DNA from: a virus
Direction: 5' to 3' (one strand)
Virus record (IMG/VR): IMGVR_UViG_3300045988_138996
Span: 64,001-128,000 of that record
DNA length: 64,000 bases
The notes beneath the pieces were generated by a model. It was not told where the DNA came from. It made no database searches and saw nothing but the letters and a program-made list of their open reading frames with translations. The translations under genes were made by a program, and so were the position numbers. Below are positions 3,783 to 29,774 of this stretch, in pieces. Positions within the stretch are counted from its first letter, which is position 1. Every line of letters starts with the position of its first letter.

Positions 3783-5303
3783 ATGAAATTAGAACAAGAT
3801 TATTCTGTAAAAGAACTAATGGAAATGCCGTTAGATGACCTAGTTAAATTAGATTATCCTAAGTTATCTAAAGAAGGCAAGTTAGTCGTTATTAAACGAG
3901 ATCCAGTCATGTGGGCAAAGTCGTTTGTTCAGATTTATAATATCGATTTAGACAAATATGCTCCATGGACACCACGGTGGTATCAAGCCGAGATGCTTCG
4001 TGACAGAAGTCTTCGTAAAGTATTCCGATGTGGTCGTCGTTGTGTGACTGGTAATCTCGAAATTCAAATGCCATCGACTGGTAAAATTAAAACAGTACAA
4101 GAATTATATAATTCCCAAGAAGAATTTGAAGTTCTTGCACTCGACGATAATTACCAAGTCGAAATAGCACAACATGCTAAAGTCTATGATAATGGTATTA
4201 AACCAGTATATAGGCTTATGACATCGTCTGGTCGAACTATTGACGCCACTGATAATCACCCGTTCTTAACAGAGTTAGGATGGGCAGAACTTTCTAAATT
4301 ATCTGTCGGTGAAAATATAGCTATACCAGTTAAATTAAATTATTTTGGTGATAATAGTATAGAAGAAACTGAATTAAAAATTCTAGCACGTAAACTTAAT
4401 AAAGATAAATCTACTATTAAGGAAATACCAGAAGAAGTATTTACGTTAAATCGTGAAGCCTTATCTGTGTTTGTATCAGAATTAATTCAAGATTCTTTTA
4501 ATGAAAAAGAAAAGCGCCCTGTTAATATGCTTTATATTTCTAAAAGTAAAAAGCTTGTTAAACAGTTAGCACATTTATTGTTAAGATATGGTATCGTAAC
4601 AACATTCCGACAAGAAAACGACAAGTATTCTTTAGGATTCGTTAATAGTAAAACGCATCGACGTCTAAAGAAAAAATCTCATACTTCAATGTTCGCACTA
4701 TATCATTCTTATAAATATCAACCGGTAAATGATAAACTTAATAAAGTTTTCTTATCATATTTACCAGTTAAAGAATTATCGCCATCAGATTTTAAAAAAG
4801 TAAAATTCGATAAATTATCTGTCGAAGAATACTTAAAATCTAAAACTCTAAATAAAAACGAAGCTCGTGAATTTGCCGAGCTTTTAGGATTCGAAACAAT
4901 TTCCGATATATTATATGGTGATATATATTGGGATAAAATCGTATCGATTGAATATTTAGGTGAGCAACAAACATATGATGTTTCGGTACCACACTATCGT
5001 AACTTTATTGCTAACGATATTATTTCACATAATACTGGCAAAACAGAAACGATGGTGGTCGAAGCACTCTTTAATGTGTTTACACGTAAGAATTTTATTC
5101 ATATGTTCGTAACACCATATCAATCACAAATTCGAATGATATTCGATAATATCCGTCAAAAAATTGATAGCTCTGCACTTATTAAACGAGAAGTAACACG
5201 ATCGACTACTAATCCTCATTTATTAGAATTCTCTAATGGTTCTAAGATCGTTGGATTTACTTCTGGTGCCGGATCTGGTATGAGTGCCGCATCAATTCGG
5301 GGT
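3783..5303 (+). CDS. terL: terminase large subunit, exon 1 (includes an in-frame intein at 4041..5033)
   Basis: Removing residues CVTGNLE...IISHN joins FRCGRR to TGKTETM, a Walker A loop (GRRTGKT). The exon ends ...GMSAASIRG at ggt|aac. The ORF-track tail NIASPICSVMSIC* is read-through into the intron. Confidence 0.8.
4041..5033 (+). mobile_element. intein (331 aa) in the TerL P-loop, with a degenerate DOD/LAGLIDADG-type endonuclease region
   Basis: Starts with Cys (CVTGNLEIQM, block A). Has TDNHPF (block B TxxH). Ends TYDVSVPHYRNFIANDIISHN followed by Thr+1. The middle has LAGLIDADG-like remnants (VFVSELIQDSF; SKKLVKQLAHLLLRYGI). In frame, 993 nt. Confidence 0.85.
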
Positions 5304-5709
5304 AACATTGCCAGCCCCATATGTTCAGTAATGAGCATATGCTAAACAGGAGTTAAACCGGGGAAGAACTTTAAGAGCTCGTTAAACTACAACGTAATTA
5401 GAAATGATAAGCGTGAATGTTGCGAAAGCTGAAAAAATTAACGAGATGATAATATGGTTAAATCCTAAGTTATCGTAAACAAGAGTTTGTTCCGGTAGGA
5501 ATGTCCGTATAGGACAACCTCTAACGACTATCCGATTGCGTCGGAGTACCTTTTATAATAAAGGGAAAAATACCTGGTCCCACTATGTGGGATTAACATA
5601 TAGTCTGTTCACGTTCTGTAATGGAAGTGCTATGAATTAACATAGGTTATTTAAATGATAAACATTATTAAAAAAATGCTGGCGGGCTGATTCTGGTTGG
5701 AGTGTATAT

Positions 5710-5738
5710 TTGACATTTTAAATGTAATATAGTATTAT
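5710..5738 (+). promoter_or_regulatory. sigma70-like promoter for the intron 1 endonuclease gene
   Basis: TTGACA (5710-5715), 17-nt spacer, TATTAT (5733-5738). About 40 nt upstream of ATG 5776. Confidence 0.55.
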
Positions 5739-5775
5739 AATAATATAAATATTTTATAATACGAGGTACTTTAAA

Positions 5776-6726
5776 ATGGAAGAAAAACTTCAACGAATAT
5801 TAAATCTTTTATCTGAAGGAAAAAATTCAGAACAAATTTCATTAATTGTTTTTAAGACAAAAAATTGTGTTCAATTTAATCGATTTTGTTCTGAAAATAA
5901 TATTGATTTAAAACAATATAAAGCATTCAAATATATGGATAAAGAATGGCTTTCAGAACAATTAAAAAAATATAATAACAGTCCTACTATTTTGGCTAGA
6001 GAACTTAACTTATCATTAACTTCTGTAAATCGATATGCAATAGAATTTGGATTAAGAAAACCTAAAAAATCTATTGCATCAGTAAATCCTATAAATGAAA
6101 AATATTTTGATGAAGTGGATAATTTTAAAAAAGCCTATTGGCTTGGTTTTATTATGGCTGATGGTTATACTTATAAAACTCCTAATCGTGAAAAATATGA
6201 ATTAGCGATTAAAATTAAGTCTACAGATATTGATCATTTAAAAGAATTTGCTAAGGATGTTGAATTTCCAGAAGAAAAAATTGCTATAGGCTCTGGCAAA
6301 AGAAATGGCAATATTAATTATTATTGCCAATTAAGAACATATAATACACATTTAGTGACAACTGTTATGCATAAGCATAAAATTGTTCAAAATAAAACTT
6401 ATGTGCAATGTTTACCAGACAGTATTCCAAAAGAATATATCTCTGATTTTATTAGAGGATATTGGGATGGTAATGGCACTCTTAAAAAAGCCGGTTGGTC
6501 TGCATGTACAATGTCTTATCAATTAATAGAATCTTTTGTTAAATATTTTGATGAAAATAATATTGAATATACTTTAAGAAAAGAATTATGTAAAAGTGGG
6601 AACTATTTACATCTAATAAGAATAAGAAGTAAATCACATGATACTTTTGTTAAATTAATTTATCCTCCAGAAAAATATGCTTTAAAAAGAAAATATGATT
6701 TAATATATACGAGTCCACAGAATTAA
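5776..6726 (+). CDS. LAGLIDADG homing endonuclease with N-terminal tandem HTH modules (intron-encoded)
   Basis: Two LAGLIDADG motifs (YWLGFIMADGY; DFIRGYWDGNGT). Two N-terminal HTH-like repeats (NSEQISLIVFKTKNCV...; SPTILARELNLSLTSVNRYAIEFGL). Visibly more AT-rich than the flanking exons. Confidence 0.85.
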   Translation: MEEKLQRILNLLSEGKNSEQISLIVFKTKNCVQFNRFCSENNIDLKQYKAFKYMDKEWLSEQLKKYNNSPTILARELNLSLTSVNRYAIEFGLRKPKKSIASVNPINEKYFDEVDNFKKAYWLGFIMADGYTYKTPNREKYELAIKIKSTDIDHLKEFAKDVEFPEEKIAIGSGKRNGNINYYCQLRTYNTHLVTTVMHKHKIVQNKTYVQCLPDSIPKEYISDFIRGYWDGNGTLKKAGWSACTMSYQLIESFVKYFDENNIEYTLRKELCKSGNYLHLIRIRSKSHDTFVKLIYPPEKYALKRKYDLIYTSPQN

Positions 6727-7024
6727 TTTCTGTGAATATAACTTAATTGCTGGGAACCCCTTAGAGCTTTTGATACCGAAGTGTAACAATTCAAAAGATT
6801 GGGCAATCAGCAGCGAAATCTTATTTTTTTAAATAAGATACGTTCAACGACTATCCCTTGGCTACCGCGTTAAAAATTAGCAATAGGAGTACGGCCTAAG
6901 TAGGCGGGTGAAATTCCCTTAATTGGAAATGGTTATCTTTAATTTAATTAAAGAAGATATAGTCTGGCCTAGTATGAAAATACTAGAAGGATTTAACGGT
7001 AACGGTTAAATTCATAACAAAGCG

Positions 7025-7184
7025 TGGATCTCTCTCGATGAAATGGATTATCTCGGCGAAGGTGACTTCGATACGATTTATGCGTTGTGTATGGAACGTG
7101 ATACGATCGGTATGACATGTTCTTCTACACCGACTGGTCGTAGATCGAAATTTTTCGATATATGTACCAAGAAGGAACTCGGGT
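7025..7184 (+). CDS. terL: terminase large subunit, exon 2
   Basis: Encodes WISLDEMDYLGEGDFDTIYALCMERDTIGMTCSSTPTGRRSKFFDICTKKELG, i.e. Walker B (LDE) and an SST coupling-motif-like segment. No start codon or RBS of its own. The 3' boundary is uncertain (7179-7190). Confidence 0.7.
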
Positions 7185-7209
7185 TAAAATAAATAAATTA
7201 GGTTTTTTA

Positions 7210-7238
7210 TAGCAATTCCATCCAATATATGGTAATAT
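7210..7238 (+). promoter_or_regulatory. extended -10 promoter candidate for the intron 2 endonuclease gene
   Basis: TAGCAA (7210-7215), then TGgTAATAT (TG at 7230-7231, -10 hexamer at 7233-7238). About 45 nt upstream of ATG 7284. Confidence 0.4.
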
Positions 7239-7283
7239 ATAATTGTAGTTATTTTACATATATTAATAAAAGGAATTGTTACT

Positions 7284-8387
7284 ATGATTAATGAAGATGA
7301 ATTGAGAAGTAAATTAGAAGAAAAATCTGTAGCTCAAATAGCTAAAGATTATAATTGTTCAGAAAATACGATTAGAAGAGCAATGAAGAAGTTTGGATTA
7401 ATAAAAACTTCAAAGAAACCATATCAAAATAAAGAAATATTATTAGATATGTTGCAGACAAAAACAGTTCAAGAAATTGCAGATTATTTTAATGTTGATA
7501 ATCATACTATTTCTAGATGGATCAATAAAAATAATATATCTTTTAATGATAAAAAACTTTATAGAAATAAAGCTTGGCTTGAACAAAAATTAAAAGAATT
7601 TAATGGTTCTTTATCTGCTATATCTAAAGAAACAGGATATAAAAAAGACACAATGCTTGAATGGTGTTATAAGTTTAATTTAAAACACACACCTGATTTT
7701 AATAAAAAATATAATTTAAATATTGATTATTTTAAAAATATTGATTCTGAAATAAAAGCATATTATCTTGGTTTTGGTATGGCTGACTTTGGAATTAGCA
7801 AAGATTGTTATTCTTTTGAATTTAGATTAAAAAAAGATGATAAATATATTATTGAAAAATTAGCAAAAGAATTAAATTATACTGCTGATTTGTATCATTT
7901 TAAAGACAGTATTCGAGAAGGATATTCATTAAGAATTTCTTCAAAAGAAATATGTAAAGATTTAATTTATCATGGAATTGTTCCAAATAAGTCAGGAAAA
8001 GAAGTTTTGCCAAATACTGTTTCAAAAGAATTAATAAAACACTTTATTCGAGGTTTTATTGATGGAGATGGATATATTGGTGGTATAAAAGATAAAACTC
8101 TTGCTATTTGTAGTATGTCTTATAATATATTGTTATCAATTAAATTATTTTTAGAAAAAGAATTAAATATAAAAAAATATAAAATTAAACCAACATTAAA
8201 AGAAAGTGGAAATATTCTATATTATTATAATATATATGGTGATTCTTTTATTAAAGTTCTTGATTATTTATATAAAGATTCAACAATATATTTAATTAGA
8301 AAACATGATAATTATTTAATTCATTTGAATAAAGATATTAATCGTAAAAATAAAAAACTTAACAAGGCTCCATTATTAAGTAATTAA
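7284..8387 (+). CDS. LAGLIDADG homing endonuclease with three N-terminal HTH repeats (intron-encoded)
   Basis: LAGLIDADG motifs YYLGFGMADFG and HFIRGFIDGDGY. Three HTH-like repeats (SVAQIAKDYNCSENTIRRAMKKFGL; TVQEIADYFNVDNHTISRWINKNNI; SLSAISKETGYKKDTMLEWCYKFNL). Confidence 0.85.
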   Translation: MINEDELRSKLEEKSVAQIAKDYNCSENTIRRAMKKFGLIKTSKKPYQNKEILLDMLQTKTVQEIADYFNVDNHTISRWINKNNISFNDKKLYRNKAWLEQKLKEFNGSLSAISKETGYKKDTMLEWCYKFNLKHTPDFNKKYNLNIDYFKNIDSEIKAYYLGFGMADFGISKDCYSFEFRLKKDDKYIIEKLAKELNYTADLYHFKDSIREGYSLRISSKEICKDLIYHGIVPNKSGKEVLPNTVSKELIKHFIRGFIDGDGYIGGIKDKTLAICSMSYNILLSIKLFLEKELNIKKYKIKPTLKESGNILYYYNIYGDSFIKVLDYLYKDSTIYLIRKHDNYLIHLNKDINRKNKKLNKAPLLSN

Positions 8388-8606
8388 TAATTGCAAATCT
8401 TTTGAACTGCTGGAACGTCCGTTAGGAAGATCAGCAGCGAAATCTTTAATTTTTTAAAGAAACGTTCAACGACTATCCTCGTGGTGAGGAGTAGGGTCAA
8501 GCGACTCGAAGCGGAAGATATCCTTTTAATAGGATAAAGATATAGTCTGAGCTATGTAGCAATACATAGAAGGTTGTAAGTAGCGATTACAATCGTAACA
8601 AAACTG

Positions 8607-8928
8607 TCCAAGAGCATTATCACCCGACTCAACATAACCCCATGTGGTCGGATGCGATGGAAGAAGAATTTAGAAATACATACGATAAAAACGCATATGA
8701 TCACGAAGTATTGGCAGAGTTTGGTGTCGAAGAAGCCGGCGTATTCGATAAAGATAAAGTCGAAGAAGCGACACAAATCGACAACTATGCTTATTTCGAT
8801 CGAGATAAATATAAACCTGTTCGTTCTATGATGGATGATAGTAATGTAAAAGAAATACATATACTACCAGAAGGACGAACTACATATTATCCTAATGTAT
8901 TTAGATGTATGGGTGTGGATTGGGATTT
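8607..8928 (+). CDS. terL: terminase large subunit, exon 3
   Basis: Encodes ...FQEHYHPTQHNPMWSDAMEEEFRNTYDKNAYDHEVLAEFGVEEAGVF...RCMGVDWD, the start of the nuclease domain (GVD). The ATG at 8642 is internal. Both boundaries are approximate (start 8581-8607, end 8926-8929). Confidence 0.65.
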
Positions 8929-8958
8929 TAGGATCATTGGAGTTGATCGGAAAGTTTT

Positions 8959-8987
8959 TTGACAGATCTTTATTTTTGTTGTAATAT
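8959..8987 (+). promoter_or_regulatory. sigma70-like promoter for the intron 3 endonuclease gene
   Basis: TTGACA (8959-8964), 17-nt spacer, TAATAT (8982-8987). ATG at 9035. Confidence 0.55.
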
Positions 8988-9034
8988 AATAGTATAATAA
9001 ATTAATATTTTATTTTTAAATAATAGGAATTATT

Positions 9035-10009
9035 ATGCTATATAAAAATGAACAATATTTAAAAGAAGCTGTTAAAACAAAAACCAATAGTCAAATTGCA
9101 AAAGAGAATAATATTAGCGCAGATACAGTAACATATTGGCTGAGAAAATATAATATAAAAAAATATGAAGAAAAAGCTCCTTATATGGACAAAGCATATA
9201 TGGCTGAATTATACAATAAGTATAAAAGTGGAAATAAAATTTCTAAATTATTAAATTGCAATGAAAAAACAATATATGCTTGGTTGGAAAAACACGGAAT
9301 AGATACTTCAGAAACTGGTAGCCAAGGAGCTAGAAAACATTTTTATAATGAAAATTATTTTAAAAAAATAGACACTGAAAGAAAAGCTTATTTTTTAGGT
9401 TTTATACTTGCTGATGGATGTGTTTATTTTGGAACAAATAAAAATTCATATAGATTTCAAATGAATTTACAGGCACAAGATAGATATATATTAGAAGAAC
9501 TTCAAAAAGATATTGAATCTGATTATAAAATTCAAGATAAACAATTTGGATATAGTAAAAATGGTGATCCAATTTTAATTTCTTTATTAAAAATTAATTC
9601 ATCTAAATTATGTGAAGATCTAATGAATCTTGGAGTTGTTCCTAGAAAATCTATGAGACAAGAAATGAAAAAAGATTTAATTCCTGATAAGTTGATTAAA
9701 CATTTTATTCGTGGTTACTTTGATGGAAACGGATCTTGTTCTATAAGAAAAAATTCAATCTCTTTAGATTTTTTAGGTAACAAAACAATATGTTTGCAAA
9801 TTGATGAGTATTTAAAATCAAATAAAATAAATAAAAATGTTCTATATGGGAACAAAAAAAATGAATTATATGGTTTAAGAATAAATAATACAGATAATAA
9901 AATTTTATTATATTATTATTTATATAAAGATGCTACTATTTACTTAAAGCGTAAAAAAGAAAAATTTGACAAATTTCTCCAATGTAAAAAAAGTCCTCTT
10001 ATTAAGTAA
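9035..10009 (+). CDS. LAGLIDADG homing endonuclease with two N-terminal HTH repeats (intron-encoded)
   Basis: LAGLIDADG motifs YFLGFILADGC and HFIRGYFDGNGS. HTH repeats TNSQIAKENNISADTVTYWLRKYNI and GNKISKLLNCNEKTIYAWLEKHGI. Confidence 0.85.
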   Translation: MLYKNEQYLKEAVKTKTNSQIAKENNISADTVTYWLRKYNIKKYEEKAPYMDKAYMAELYNKYKSGNKISKLLNCNEKTIYAWLEKHGIDTSETGSQGARKHFYNENYFKKIDTERKAYFLGFILADGCVYFGTNKNSYRFQMNLQAQDRYILEELQKDIESDYKIQDKQFGYSKNGDPILISLLKINSSKLCEDLMNLGVVPRKSMRQEMKKDLIPDKLIKHFIRGYFDGNGSCSIRKNSISLDFLGNKTICLQIDEYLKSNKINKNVLYGNKKNELYGLRINNTDNKILLYYYLYKDATIYLKRKKEKFDKFLQCKKSPLIK

Positions 10010-10228
10010 TTAATAAGTAATAAACTGGTTGAATTGCTGGAATATCCTAAATGGACAATCAGCAGCCAAGTCTCTAGTAGAGAAAGGTTCAACGACTATC
10101 CTTGTATAAGGAGTAGGATCAAGCGATCCGAAGTGGCCAGCAACCTAGTAATAGGTCGAAGATATAGTCTAATCTATATAGTAATATATAGCAGCTTAAA
10201 AGCGTATTAAGTTTAGCGAACTTAATAG

Positions 10229-10421
10229 AATATACATGAAATCACAAGCCCCAACATCTATACTTATACTTGAATACGATCAAGTATTTAATAAATTTAG
10301 AGTTATTAATAGAACAGAAATCGAATCGTCTGAATTTACATTCGATAAAGCTGTTAAAAAGATAATTGATTTAAATGCTATTTATAACCCTAGCTATATT
10401 TATATAGACAGAGGATCTGGT
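10229..10421 (+). CDS. terL: terminase large subunit, exon 4
   Basis: Encodes ...KSQAPTSILILEYDQVFNKFRVINRTEIESSEFTFDKAVKKIIDLNAIYNPSYIYIDRGSG (RNase H-like nuclease strand pattern). It ends at ggt|aaa. The start is approximate (10203-10229). The track tail KYLPYIL* is intron read-through. Confidence 0.65.
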
Positions 10422-10685
10422 AAATATTTGCCCTATATATTATAAGTGAATTATATAATATATATGCAGTGTGGTATTAAGCGAGAAGCCTAAGTTAATT
10501 AATTAATATGGTAACTCGAACCGAAGACTTAATTAAATTAAGTCAGGGGCAGAGCATAGTAAGTGAAAAGATATAATCTTGCCAAGAGACCGCACCATAC
10601 ATTCACAATACGTATGAAAAAGTATGCCGACCTTATAGGAAACTATAAGAACTAGGAGATAAAAAGCTCCTAGGATAACAACGTG
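10422..10685 (+). ncRNA. ORF-less intron 4 of terL (264 nt, probably a compact group I intron)
   Basis: The contiguous guide atatttgcc (10424-10432) pairs with the exon 5 start gaatat (10686-10691) and the exon 4 end ggt (10419-10421, G-U at the splice site). The intron follows U and ends in G (10685). The junction restores ...IDRGSG|EYQMESL... in frame. It has an S-like aagatataatct but no clear canonical P/Q/R. Confidence 0.65.
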
Positions 10686-27126: not shown

Positions 27127-28063
27127 AAAAATTCCGCGTTTGCTTCTCCTTTGCAGTAATGCAATGTATAATTAAACTCTGTGATATGCTGGAAACCCCT
27201 TAGAGCCTTTAGTACCAAAGTGTGACAATCTAAAGGATTGGGCAATCAGCAGGCAGCGTAAGCGCCTCAACGACTATCCGTAAGGAGTACATCATAACAG
27301 CTGATGGAAGTGCAGAGCTCCCTTTTTCGTGTCATATGTGGCATTGCAAATAATTTTTCTATGTAATATAATAATAGAAAAGGAGATGATCACATATGAA
27401 GTATAAATATAATTTAGATTTTTTTAAAAATGATTCACCTGAAAAATATTATTTCTATGGTTTTTTAGCGTCAGATGGTTATATTTCAGATGATAAAATT
27501 AGCATTGGAATAAATGTTAAAGATAGAGAAATATTAGAAAAATTTCAAAAATTAATTTGTCCAGAAAAACCAATTTATGAAAAGACACAAACAAATTCTT
27601 TAAAATTTGAAATAACAAATAAGGATTTGTCAAAAAAATTAAAAAAATATTTTTCTATGATAACCAATAAAAAATATGAAGAAATCAGGTTTCCAAATGT
27701 TCCAGAAAAATATCTTAAAGATTTTATCCGTGGTGTAATTGATGGAGATGGAAATATCGATACAACAAAAGGATATCAAAAAGACAAAATTTATATTGGA
27801 GCAAGATTAAGAATATTAGGAAATAAGGAATTCTTAATAGAATTAAATGAAAAAACTAAATTATTATATCCACATAATACCAATGCAGTAAATAAAAAAG
27901 GAAAAGAAAATGTTTATGTGATAACATATAATTTTAAAACTGCTAGAGAATTATTAAGAATAATATATTATGATGGATGTTTATCGTTAACAAGAAAATT
28001 TAATCGATCTAGGGATGAAGATATAGTCTCAACAATTACGAAAGTTATTGATAAGAAAAAATG
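27127..28063 (+). mobile_element. group I intron 1 of the tube gene (937 nt), with a LAGLIDADG ORF between R and S
   Basis: The guide cgcgtttgcttctc (27135-27148) pairs with the exon 2 start aaacgcg (28064-28070, 7 bp) and the exon 1 end gagaggt (27120-27126, 7 bp including G-U at the splice site). P atatgctggaaacc 27184-27197, Q caatcagcagg 27243-27253, R cctcaacgactatcc 27265-27279, S aagatatagtct 28018-28029. The last base is G (28063). Confidence 0.85.
27344..27372 (+). promoter_or_regulatory. sigma70-like promoter for the tube-intron endonuclease gene
   Basis: TTGCAA (27344-27349), 17-nt spacer, TATAAT (27367-27372). Then aaaggag and ATG 27396. Confidence 0.55.
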
Positions 28064-28177: not shown

Positions 28178-28531
28178 TTGGCGGTAGCCTAGTCGGCATA
28201 TAAAGTAATTTGTATGTCTGCAAATATATGATAGTTTGTATTTGCACCGATTGGATCGAATTGCTGGGAAATCCTAAAGCTTAAAATACCTTAATGGTTG
28301 TGAAAACAGAAATAAATTTTAAGATGATATATGGTTAAAACCTAAGTATTATAATAATGGACAATCAGCAGCGAAGTCGCAATATTGCGAAACGTTCAAC
28401 GACTATCTCGTGAAGAGAGTAGGATAAAATGCTTTCCGAAGTGGTCCATCCCATACAGTGGGAAATGATATAGTCTATGCTTATATGAAAGTATAAGAAA
28501 AACAAATTTAGCAAATTTGTGTATAAAATAT

Positions 28532-28560
28532 TTGACAATAATTAATATCACCATTATAAT
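28532..28560 (+). promoter_or_regulatory. consensus sigma70 promoter for tnpB
   Basis: TTGACA (28532-28537), exactly 17 nt, TATAAT (28555-28560). Then gaaagga and ATG 28590. Confidence 0.65.
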
Positions 28561-28589
28561 ATTCTTATAAACAAGAAAGGATATTATAT

Positions 28590-29678
28590 ATGGAAAAAAG
28601 ATTTTTATTACAAATATATCCAACAAAAGAACAAGAAAAATTAATACAAAGAACATTTGGATGCGCAAGATTCGTTTATAATTATTTTTTAGATTATAGA
28701 ATAAAAAAATATAATGAAGAAAATATTTCTTTAACTGCTAATGATTGTAGTAAAATATTAACTTCATTAAAAAAAGAAAAAGAATTTTTGCAAATTCCAG
28801 ATAAATATGCATTACAAAATGTATTAAAAGATTTAGATATGGCTTATAAAAGATTTCAAAAAGGAATTGCGAATTACCCAAAGTTTAAATCTAGAAGTAA
28901 TTATAAGACATATAGAACAAATCGATCTGGTAATAAAATTAGATTTGTTTCTGATAATATAATTATTCTTCCTAAGTTAAGAGAAGTTAAGTTTAGGAAC
29001 AATATTGTTCCAGATGGCGAAATTGTGAATGTTGCAATTATACAAAAACCTTCTGGTAAATATTATGCGTCTGTTCTTTGTAGAAATTGCAAAGTAAAAA
29101 ATATTGAAAAAACTGGCAAAAGTGTTGGTATAGATTTAGGAATAAAAGATTATATTGTTACATCTGATGGACAAAAAATTCCAAATAATCATTTTCTAAA
29201 AAAGACAATATCTAAAATAAAGAAAATGCAAAAAGAATTTGATAGAAAAAAAGATGGTAGCAATAATAAAGAAAAATTAAGAATTAAAATAGCTAAACAA
29301 TATGAAAAACTAACAAATGCAAGAAAAGATTATATTCATAAACTTTCTATGAAATTAATAGAAGAATATGATGATATTTGCATTGAAGATTTAAAGATAA
29401 AAGATATGGTTAAAAATAAACTTTTGTCTTTTGATATAATGGATTGTTCATGGTATGAATTACGAAGACAGCTTGAATATAAAGCAAAATTCTATAATAA
29501 AAGAATTCATATTGTTGATAGATATTTTCCATCGAGTAAAAAATGTTCAGTTTGTGGTTATAAAAAAGAAGATCTTTCGCTTGATGATCGATTTTGGACT
29601 TGTCCAGATTGTAATACCACTCATGATAGAGATATAAATGCAGCTAAAAATATTCTTAAAGAAGGAATGAAAAATTAA
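28590..29678 (+). CDS. tnpB: TnpB (IS200/IS605-family OrfB, RuvC-type RNA-guided nuclease), intron-encoded
   Basis: 362 aa. OrfB N-terminal pattern (LLQIYPTKEQEKLIQRTFGCARFVYNYFL). RuvC I GIDLGIKDY (D at 29133-29135). RuvC II ICIEDLKIKDM (E at 29385-29387). Zinc ribbon CSVCGY...CPDCN. RuvC III HDRDINAAKNI (D at 29631-29633). No tnpA anywhere in the window. Confidence 0.9.
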   Translation: MEKRFLLQIYPTKEQEKLIQRTFGCARFVYNYFLDYRIKKYNEENISLTANDCSKILTSLKKEKEFLQIPDKYALQNVLKDLDMAYKRFQKGIANYPKFKSRSNYKTYRTNRSGNKIRFVSDNIIILPKLREVKFRNNIVPDGEIVNVAIIQKPSGKYYASVLCRNCKVKNIEKTGKSVGIDLGIKDYIVTSDGQKIPNNHFLKKTISKIKKMQKEFDRKKDGSNNKEKLRIKIAKQYEKLTNARKDYIHKLSMKLIEEYDDICIEDLKIKDMVKNKLLSFDIMDCSWYELRRQLEYKAKFYNKRIHIVDRYFPSSKKCSVCGYKKEDLSLDDRFWTCPDCNTTHDRDINAAKNILKEGMKN

Positions 29679-29774
29679 TTATTGTTGAACCGCAGGAATT
29701 GCGGAGATTGTCTTGAGACGTTTATCGTCAATAGAAATTTTATTTTATAAAAAATTCAGATTAACTATCAACCG
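29600..29774 (+). ncRNA. candidate omega-RNA (reRNA) scaffold overlapping the tnpB 3' end and the intron 3' end
   Basis: By analogy with IS200/605 elements, where the guide RNA scaffold spans the tnpB 3' end to the element right end. Local hairpins: ccgca (29690-29694) / tgcgg (29700-29704) and gacg (29717-29720) / cgtc (29726-29729). The extent is a guess. Confidence 0.35.

Follow-up and report, generated by a model that had tools for sequence, protein, structure and literature searches.

A putative tandem pair of group I introns around a 12-13-nt coding mini-exon in a phage large-terminase gene

Group I introns of T-even and Twort-like phages carry free-standing LAGLIDADG homing endonuclease open reading frames (ORFs) in peripheral loops, and twintrons, in which one intron lies inside another with no exon between them, are exemplified by the twin-ribozyme intron of Didymium. 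Tandem group I introns with short exons between them, and with exon skipping, have been described in orf142 of phage Twort (23-nt exon, both introns belonging to subgroup IA2) and in Coxiella 23S ribosomal RNA (rRNA; 34-nt exon) (PMC10136302). For the group B IStron BcISt1, reverse-transcription polymerase chain reaction (RT-PCR) shows splicing after a G, and the intron opens with the U of the U.G pair (PMC4227781, Tourasse et al. 2014). Here we examine an interruption of the large-terminase gene (TerL) at 5304-7024 of a 64,000-nt stretch of viral DNA (positions 64,001 to 128,000 of IMG/VR record IMGVR_UViG_3300045988_138996), which as a whole is called the window below; the TerL exons and the introns and ORF between them lie on its plus strand. 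The interruption follows ...ASIRG (ggt, 5301-5303) and precedes WISLDEMDY..., whose tgg is at 7025.

We propose that the region 5303-7024 very probably holds two independent group I introns, inserted 12 nt apart: intron 1a, which is ORF-less (5303..5678, 376 nt; 5304-5679 in an alternative register), and intron 1b, which encodes a predicted homing endonuclease (5692..7024, 1333 nt), with a mini-exon of 12-13 nt for the residues W-R-A-D between them. The arrangement is of a known kind, in an extreme form. As in Twort orf142 and Coxiella 23S rRNA, two complete group I introns share one gene across a very short exon, and skipping is possible; unlike those systems, the exon measures only 12-13 nt and codes for part of the ATPase active-site region, the ribozymes are of different lineages rather than near-identical copies, one of them has a LAGLIDADG gene, and three relatives (L051, L059, L062) add a third intron 15 nt further on. 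As in twintrons, two ribozyme cores lie between two large exons, but neither core is nested in the other and a translated exon would separate them. What is unusual is how short the exon is and that it codes for protein, the combination of an IStron-type ribozyme with an endonuclease intron, and a non-canonical splice register. An earlier sequence-only reading had suggested either a twintron or the tandem invasion of one site by two introns that now splice as one unit; its tandem invasion is retained here, whereas nesting, a common target site and excision as one unit are not.

The mini-exon and the intron downstream of it

The case for a mini-exon begins with the protein. When TerL exon 1 (3783..5302, ending ...att cgg gg for I R G, as placed by translation, homolog alignment and tblastn of the extein) was freed of its intein, joined directly to exon 2 and aligned with 18 TerL homologs, the product read IRG----WISLDE, with a gap of four residues exactly at the junction, against IRG-QRAD-WIxLDE in the homologs. 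The spacing from RG to the Walker B DE is eight residues in all 18, down to 38% identity, and the same in P0001, P0029, P0039 and P0040. Close relatives from assemblies (L001, L002) have ASIRG-WRAD-WISLD unbroken here, relatives read IRGWRADWISLD at this position, and some 16 intron-less relatives share the pattern cgN ggN tgg cgN (gc/ag)N gaY tgg at..., that is, IRG-WR(A/S)D-WI. In the window the codons tgg cgg gct gat for W-R-A-D stand at 5680-5691, downstream of the first ribozyme and ahead of the endonuclease gene's promoter, and because they fill the exact gap seen against homologs and close relatives we take 5679..5691 as the mini-exon (c tgg cgg gct gat, 13 nt, the c being the third base of the Gly codon; 5680-5691, 12 nt, in the alternative register). 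Protein conservation thus leads us to infer that 5679/5680-5691 is a translated coding exon retained in the mature TerL mRNA, in keeping with the translation of the spliced sequence. Across 12 natural variants bearing intron 1a its changes are only synonymous and at third positions (cgg/cgc/cgt; gct/gcc/gcg), with tgg in frame in every one; as a point on the other side, this pattern could partly reflect recombination from alleles with 1b alone rather than selection in place. Behind intron 1b the gene resumes at 7025..7184 (tgg atc tct ctc gat gaa, WISLDEMDY..., with Walker B; translation and homolog alignment) up to the 5' splice site of the next TerL intron, which follows 7184 and across which L001 reads KELGFQEHYHP uninterrupted.

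TerL exon 1 is itself interrupted by an intein of about 331 aa (C...SHN|T; window 4041-5033) within the Walker A motif (CGRR|intein|TGKTE), and inteins at Walker A are present in relatives as well (Pfam finds Intein_splicing in the L001 and L002 products).

Intron 1b accounts for the downstream of the two cores announced by the sequence-only reading, and a covariance model bore that core out with a full-length Rfam Intron_gpI match at 6692-6986 (76.6 bits), two further matches falling in the next TerL introns. In our model P2 lies at 6716-6734, the core P3-P9 at 6745-6990 and the terminal G at 7024. The ATG at 5776, 472 nt from 5304 as had been counted, opens an ORF of 316 aa (5776..6726) whose product is a predicted LAGLIDADG homing endonuclease (Pfam PF14528 LAGLIDADG_3, E = 9.7e-12, 45.4 bits against a cut-off of 22.5), and ahead of it a sigma-70-like promoter (5710..5738; TTGACA, 17 nt, TATTAT) is predicted purely from its match to the consensus at 11 of 12 positions. 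The guide of 1b is the GUC that immediately precedes the P2 hairpin (6713-6715): minimal ORF-less variants have only 11 nt between splice site and GUCC, and the partner of intron base +1 covaries (A-U, G.U, U-A), which together point to a P1 made of GAU|UC (5689-5693) with GAGUC (6711-6715), and therefore to a P1 loop that holds the LAGLIDADG ORF and its promoter, the stop codon falling in the P2 loop. Weighing against this P1 are its mere three exon base pairs and two variants (L039, L066) mismatched at the covarying +1 position. Minimum free energy (MFE) folds of ORF-deleted 1b did not discriminate the P1 pairing. A local P1 (CUGAU 5687-5691 with GUUGG 5696-5700) was dropped in favour of GAU|UC/GAGUC on the strength of the 11-nt spacing and the covarying partner. 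Intron 1b resembles other phage endonuclease introns in its IA2-like core, to which P7.1 and P7.2 belong, in the predicted promoter that its ORF has to itself and in its place in an essential gene; it differs from them in having the ORF in the P1 loop, with about 1 kb between 5' splice site and guide, and in the three exon pairs of P1.

Intron 1b also occurs by itself. Five related loci (L006, L009, L039, L041, L064) have it at D|W without the upstream ribozyme, and since they do, 1b should have a 5' splice site to itself, at 5691|5692. The sequence of L006 runs ...cgg ggc tgg cgg gca gac|, a 346-nt ORF-less intron, |tgg atc tct..., the intron core being 98.7-99% identical to window 6727-7024; L009 has a similar ORF-less copy, and L039 and L041 have endonuclease-bearing ones. 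At L006 6280-6283 the ORF-less intron follows gac, so that the exon ends in a C and a C-G pair to the guide takes the place of U.G; gat stands here in L009 and in the window.

These genomes bear directly on a true twintron, whose inner intron would be excised before the outer one could fold and for which two cores within what looks like a single gene interruption might speak. In genomes with 1b alone the 5' end of 1b is at gaY|, and 1a lies wholly upstream of that point, interrupting what is exon there (cgg gg|N tgg); a full set from P1 to P9 is present in either intron, with no element split by the other; and the coding mini-exon, 5679-5691, separates the two ribozymes. We regard a twintron as extremely improbable.

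Excision of the whole as one composite intron, in which the upstream guide and core act at 5303 and the downstream core supplies the 3' site at 7024, comes from the sequence-only reading, which had the guide of the upstream ribozyme pairing with both flanking exons. Its pairing with the 5' exon holds. For the 3' exon, its CCA can pair with UGG at 7025-7027, but these are only three bases, and its best partner, (C)UGGC at 5679-5683, lies inside the supposed intron. Exon skipping between tandem group I introns is on record for Twort orf142 and Coxiella 23S rRNA (PMC10136302). Yet removing 5304-7024 as one piece deletes four conserved residues beside the arginine finger and Walker B or, when the 5' exon ends at G5302 and U5303 is the first intron base (the G(-1) register, as opposed to the U(-1) register, in which the 5' exon ends at U5303), shifts the frame instead; the length of this stretch is invariant in all homologs, the mini-exon is conserved at the protein level, and 1b has its own guide and occurs alone. 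One-unit splicing is very unlikely to be the rule and would be a minor side reaction at most, because the conserved motif would be deleted or frameshifted.

Comparison with relatives, added to the sequence itself, thus establishes two complete predicted ribozymes, a coding mini-exon, separate insertion sites (1a at G|W, 1b at D|W) and a 1b that exists on its own. As in other tandem group I introns around a short exon, the two introns possess separate guides and cores. Taking the junctions from reading frames, homolog alignments and base-pairing, we envisage that an ORF-less IA2-type ribozyme, whose guide is GCCAGCCCC, entered TerL at G|W and that 1b entered at D|W with its LAGLIDADG gene and promoter in the P1 loop, GAU|UC pairing with GAGUC and the intron ending at G7024. 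The two would splice separately and retain the mini-exon, restoring IRG-WRAD-WISLDE from the arginine finger to Walker B.

The upstream ribozyme and its IStron-like relatives

The features that had first drawn attention to the upstream segment are all there: an R-like element (cctctaacgactatcc, 5518-5533) followed by ggagtac (5543-5549), the hairpin tcccac/gtggga (5578-5583 / 5587-5592), an S-like element (aacatatagtct, 5595-5606) and hairpins across 5610-5659. The segment also holds P- and Q-type elements that had been missed (AAACCGGGGAA, 5355-5365, and UUCCGGUAGGAAU, 5490-5502), of a form that we take to be that of the T4 td intron, as well as P3, P5abc, P6, P7.1 and P7.2, and is therefore a whole intron rather than a core alone. 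Its exact R element (AACGACTATCC, 5523-5533) and S element (ATATAGTCT, 5598-5606) are no chance pair: the combination of AACGACTATCC, 55-85 nt and ATATAGTCT occurs three times in the window (in 1a and in TerL introns 2 and 3) against 0.00 times in shuffled sequence, and elsewhere in the window the exact elements are found only in its other introns.

Helices P1 to P9.2 were placed by hand, guided by an MFE fold that recovers most of them (z = -3.4). P1 joins GGGGU at 5299-5303 to GCCCC at 5314-5318, with U5303.G5314 as a wobble at its end and the guide at 5310-5318; P2 (5319-5340) has a GUAA loop; P3 is formed by 5347-5350 / 5573-5576, P4 by 5357-5363 / 5490-5496 and P5 by 5366-5372 / 5482-5488. 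Two GAAA loops (5401-5404, 5424-5427) lie in the P5abc extension (5373-5481), as does an 11-nt receptor formed by UAUGG (5453-5457) and CCUAAG (5464-5469). P6/P6a (5497-5520), P7 (5524-5530 / 5601-5606), P7.1 (5531-5545), P7.2 (5549-5565), P8 (5578-5592), P9 (5610-5629), P9.1 (5630-5645) and P9.2 (5646-5659) follow, and an A-rich tail ends in AUG at 5678. P7.1 and P7.2 between P7 and P3', with the extended P9 (P9.1 and P9.2, 5630-5659), are the marks of subgroup IA2, a layout also seen in introns 1b, 2 and 3. The ORF list has no ORF of at least 60 aa within 5303-5678.

The model was tested on the 12 natural variants, which come from metagenomic TerL loci and form an alignment that includes closely related sequences. 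In it, 98.0% of cells are paired; 12 pairs are changed on both sides, against 5.4 +/- 1.5 in shuffles (none of 500 reaching 12) and 0-4 when the partner is slid; and covariation scores 0.109, compared with 0.069 for the shuffles. The compensatory changes fall in P2, P5a-c, P6a, P7.2, P8 and P9.1. The catalytic helices P1, P3, P4, P7 and P7.1 are invariant across the 12, including U5303.G5314 and the guanosine-binding pair of P7, G5526-C5605, which is of the ordinary type. More distant homologs (L029, L030, L205) supply covariation in two of these helices, with CAGG/CCUG of P3 replaced by CAAA/UUUG and one G-C pair of P4 by A-U. Taken together, pairing, compensatory changes and the covariation of P3 and P4 argue that the RNA of intron 1a is under selection for a group I fold (5304-5679), contrary to the possibility, raised at the outset, that the segment might be a peripheral extension incapable of forming a core. 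The covariance-model check that favoured the downstream segment failed here, and this counts against the assignment: Rfam RF00028 gave no match at E <= 10 for the whole window, for the 1.9-kb stretch 5200-7100 or for the 411-nt stretch 5290-5700. The same model misses both introns of the tail-tube gene (tube gene below), although these bear R and S elements.

The upstream segment had been likened to tube-gene intron 1. That resemblance belongs to the downstream core, tube-gene intron 1 at 27187-27252 being 86% identical to 6748-6813 of 1b; intron 1a resembles tube-gene intron 2 instead, with 79% identity between 5419-5470 and 28297-28347, and there in the P5 extension only. The P5 extension of 1a (5367-5469) also shares up to 87% identity with stretches that bear no annotation in the GenBank records of Staphylococcus phages (among them vB_SpsM-DH2, PMBT8 and Romulus/Remus) and of Brochothrix A9, stretches that presumably are group I introns; the likeness suggests that peripheral domains have been exchanged as modules. 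When GenBank phages were searched for near-identical sequence, 5200-7100 had no match. A scan of contigs for ribozymes of the 1a type found none with a first pattern; a 14-base pattern hit at least 120 loci, and among the matches listed none had an R/S pair nearby.

Homologs of the 1a ribozyme do occur with transposon genes. In L029, L030 and L205 a TnpB gene (Pfam OrfB_IS605 and Cas12f1-like TNB) lies downstream of the ribozyme, and the elements, which are preceded by AGGG or GGGG, have U as their first base and ACGG as their end; we call them group-B-IStron-like because a GGG-type site, a U start and an ACGG end characterise group B IStrons. For L205 the frame is kept only by a G(-1) start and a terminal G (atg acg att ata aaa gca ggg | U...ACGG | ttg gat att ggt), and its spliced product has an actin-like ALP_N domain; a search for the splice junction of L030 by way of protein homologs in GenBank phages gave no match. 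Intron 1a has the site described for group B IStrons (PMC4227781), cgggg|u followed by a 10-nt loop, AACAUUGCCA, directly after the U.G pair. Its likeness to BcISt1 and ORF-less derivatives of that type, drawn from the published features of BcISt1, thus comprises IA2 architecture, a GG-ending site (CGGGG), U as first base, a loop right after U.G, and homology to the three TnpB-carrying ribozymes. Against close kinship stand the end of the intron, which is not CGG but ...AAAAAAAUG in the window (...AUG) and ...AAAU in sister variants, and the lack within 5303-5678 of an IS607-type ORF A/TnpB module, no ORF there reaching 60 aa; unlike group B IStrons, moreover, 1a sits in a phage terminase gene beside a homing endonuclease intron. 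On balance, sequence features indicate that the 1a ribozyme is related to those of TnpB-carrying, group-B-IStron-like elements.

Where intron 1a begins and ends

For intron 1a we favour, with moderate confidence, the G(-1) register, in which splicing would occur after G5302 and the intron would end at G5678 (cgg gg|c tgg cgg gct gat). The guide GCCAGCCCC is a perfect 9-base complement of GGGG|CUGGC in this register, its reverse complement, GGGGCTGGC, being exactly the ligated junction of 5299-5302 and 5679-5683; and the resulting mRNA, ...cgg ggc tgg cgg gct gat tgg atc..., has a junction, cggggctggcg, identical to the intron-less allele of L006 and L009. The register departs from the classical 5' rule; a 5' exon ending in U5303 together with an intron ending in G5678 yields a frameshift and a stop. 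The two canonical splice rules are incompatible with the frame when combined, so some non-canonical feature is needed in 1a: G5678 can serve as the terminal G only if the 5' exon ends at G5302, and the U(-1) register makes C5679 the last base of the intron.

That last reading keeps the same two introns and a classical 5' site after U5303, and gives a mini-exon of 12 nt (5680-5691). It gains from the U5303.G5314 pair at the end of P1, unchanged in 12 of 12 variants, from a canonical P10 geometry that sets U5680 opposite A5313, from some intron-less relatives (L005, L038) in which ggt tgg is the natural sequence, and from the U that precedes tgg in nine sister variants. It has to reconcile a non-G end with an invariant P7 guanosine-binding pair, G5526-C5605, of the ordinary type, and we know of no natural group I intron described with a terminal C or U. 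The G at 5678 of the window, furthermore, sits exactly where the G(-1) register needs it, and related IStron-type ribozymes splice after G (PMC4227781; the reading frame of L205). We hold the U(-1) register to be unlikely.

The sister variants sharpen the problem. Nine of the 12 (L050, L051, L055, L059, L062, L066, L067, L069, L070) are without the 'gc' found at 5678-5679 of the window, have ...AAAU directly before tgg (...AAAU|UGG CGN), and offer no G for at least 8 nt upstream; with the P7 guanosine-binding pair unchanged, no register gives them both a terminal G and the conserved Trp. In the window, L012 and L040 the extra 'gc' resolves both. By parsimony the state without 'gc' would be the older, because it is common to the most divergent variants, L066 and L069. 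If the sister variants keep the Trp, a group I ribozyme with an ordinary P7 would have to ligate exons without a 3'-terminal G, using a terminal A or U, and this seems to us quite improbable; a literature search for natural group I introns without a terminal G brought up nothing useful.

Alternatively, the ribozyme of the sister variants may borrow an exon G, leaving TerL one residue shorter between arginine finger and Walker B. Extended to the window, this would mean the same two introns with the terminal G of 1a taken from tgg, a mini-exon of cgg gct gat or g cgg gct gat, and a TerL without the Trp (IRG-RAD-WISLDE). It is the sole reading that gives all nine sister variants a terminal G (...AAAU|UGG), and it keeps the frame under either 5' rule. 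A shorter protein conflicts, however, with the eight-residue RG-DE spacing, invariant in all homologs sampled; tgg is in frame in each of the 12 variants; the guide complements a junction with UGGC, not CGG; and in the window G5678 comes before tgg. For the window we consider it rather less than likely, in fact quite doubtful; were it true of the sisters, the 'gc' of the window would be a natural repair restoring both terminal G and Trp.

Distribution, neighbouring introns and implications

About 40 TerL loci from assemblies were compared at this site; they are related, and the counts are not independent. No intron is present in about 16 of them, and six or seven have only a different intron, at LD|E. 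Intron 1b is found alone in four and with the LD|E intron in one; 1a and 1b occur together in nine and are joined by the LD|E intron in three. Relatives that carry just one of the two parts had been called for as a comparison, and they exist for 1b, whereas 1a alone was found in none of the loci. The simplest way to account for the spread of 1a is co-conversion with 1b, which we infer because 1a is ORF-less and lies 12-13 nt from the insertion site of 1b: 1a would be carried along when the 1b endonuclease cuts intron-less alleles. Two arrangements around the third site may be added. In L051, L059 and L062 a run of 27 coding bases (G|WRAD|WISLD|E) is broken by three group I introns, which leaves exons of 12 and 15 nt between them, and in L009 the 1b and LD|E introns are separated by a 15-nt exon, tggatatcactggat.

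Further introns lie elsewhere in the window. TerL introns 2 and 3 (7185-8606, 8927-10238) each have a LAGLIDADG ORF with N-terminal helix-turn-helix (HTH) domains between 5' splice site and core, and their sites are occupied by ORF-less copies or empty in relatives (L001, L007, L008). A segment of about 262 nt (~10422-10685) intervenes in TerL after ...IDRGSG; it has CCUAAG/UAUGG receptor-like and GAAA motifs and an Rfam Intron_gpI score of only 14.5 bits (E = 0.21). This DRGxG site appears to be widely occupied, because many homologs are truncated at the same point. In the tube gene, intron 1 (27129-28060) is a group I intron with R and S elements (27269 and 28021) 750 nt apart and an ORF between them (ATG 27396), its P4-P6 region being the part 86% identical to that of TerL intron 1b. 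Tube-gene intron 2 (28190-29700) has a group I core with an exact S element (28468) and an R element with one mismatch (28398), and a promoter-like site followed by a TnpB ORF of 362 aa (28590-29678; Pfam OrfB_IS605, Cas12f1-like TNB, HTH_OrfB_IS605); these features make it an IStron-like element within a structural gene of a phage. Neither of the two tube-gene introns was reported by Rfam run on the window.

For annotation, the consequence is that splicing exon 1 to exon 2 by software or by eye gives a TerL short of four conserved residues, as a 12-13-nt exon is invisible to gene callers. This TerL family has a hot spot for intron insertion between arginine finger and Walker B, where as many as three group I introns crowd into 27 coding bases and the exons, of 12 and 15 nt, are shorter than the 23 nt of Twort orf142 and the 34 nt of Coxiella 23S rRNA given in PMC10136302. 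That the ORF-less IStron-type ribozyme was never found without its endonuclease-bearing neighbour among the 40 or so loci fits co-conversion. The intron pair is a natural system in which to test how two neighbouring ribozymes keep from skipping an exon, as well as the unusual rule of splicing after G and the need for a terminal G.

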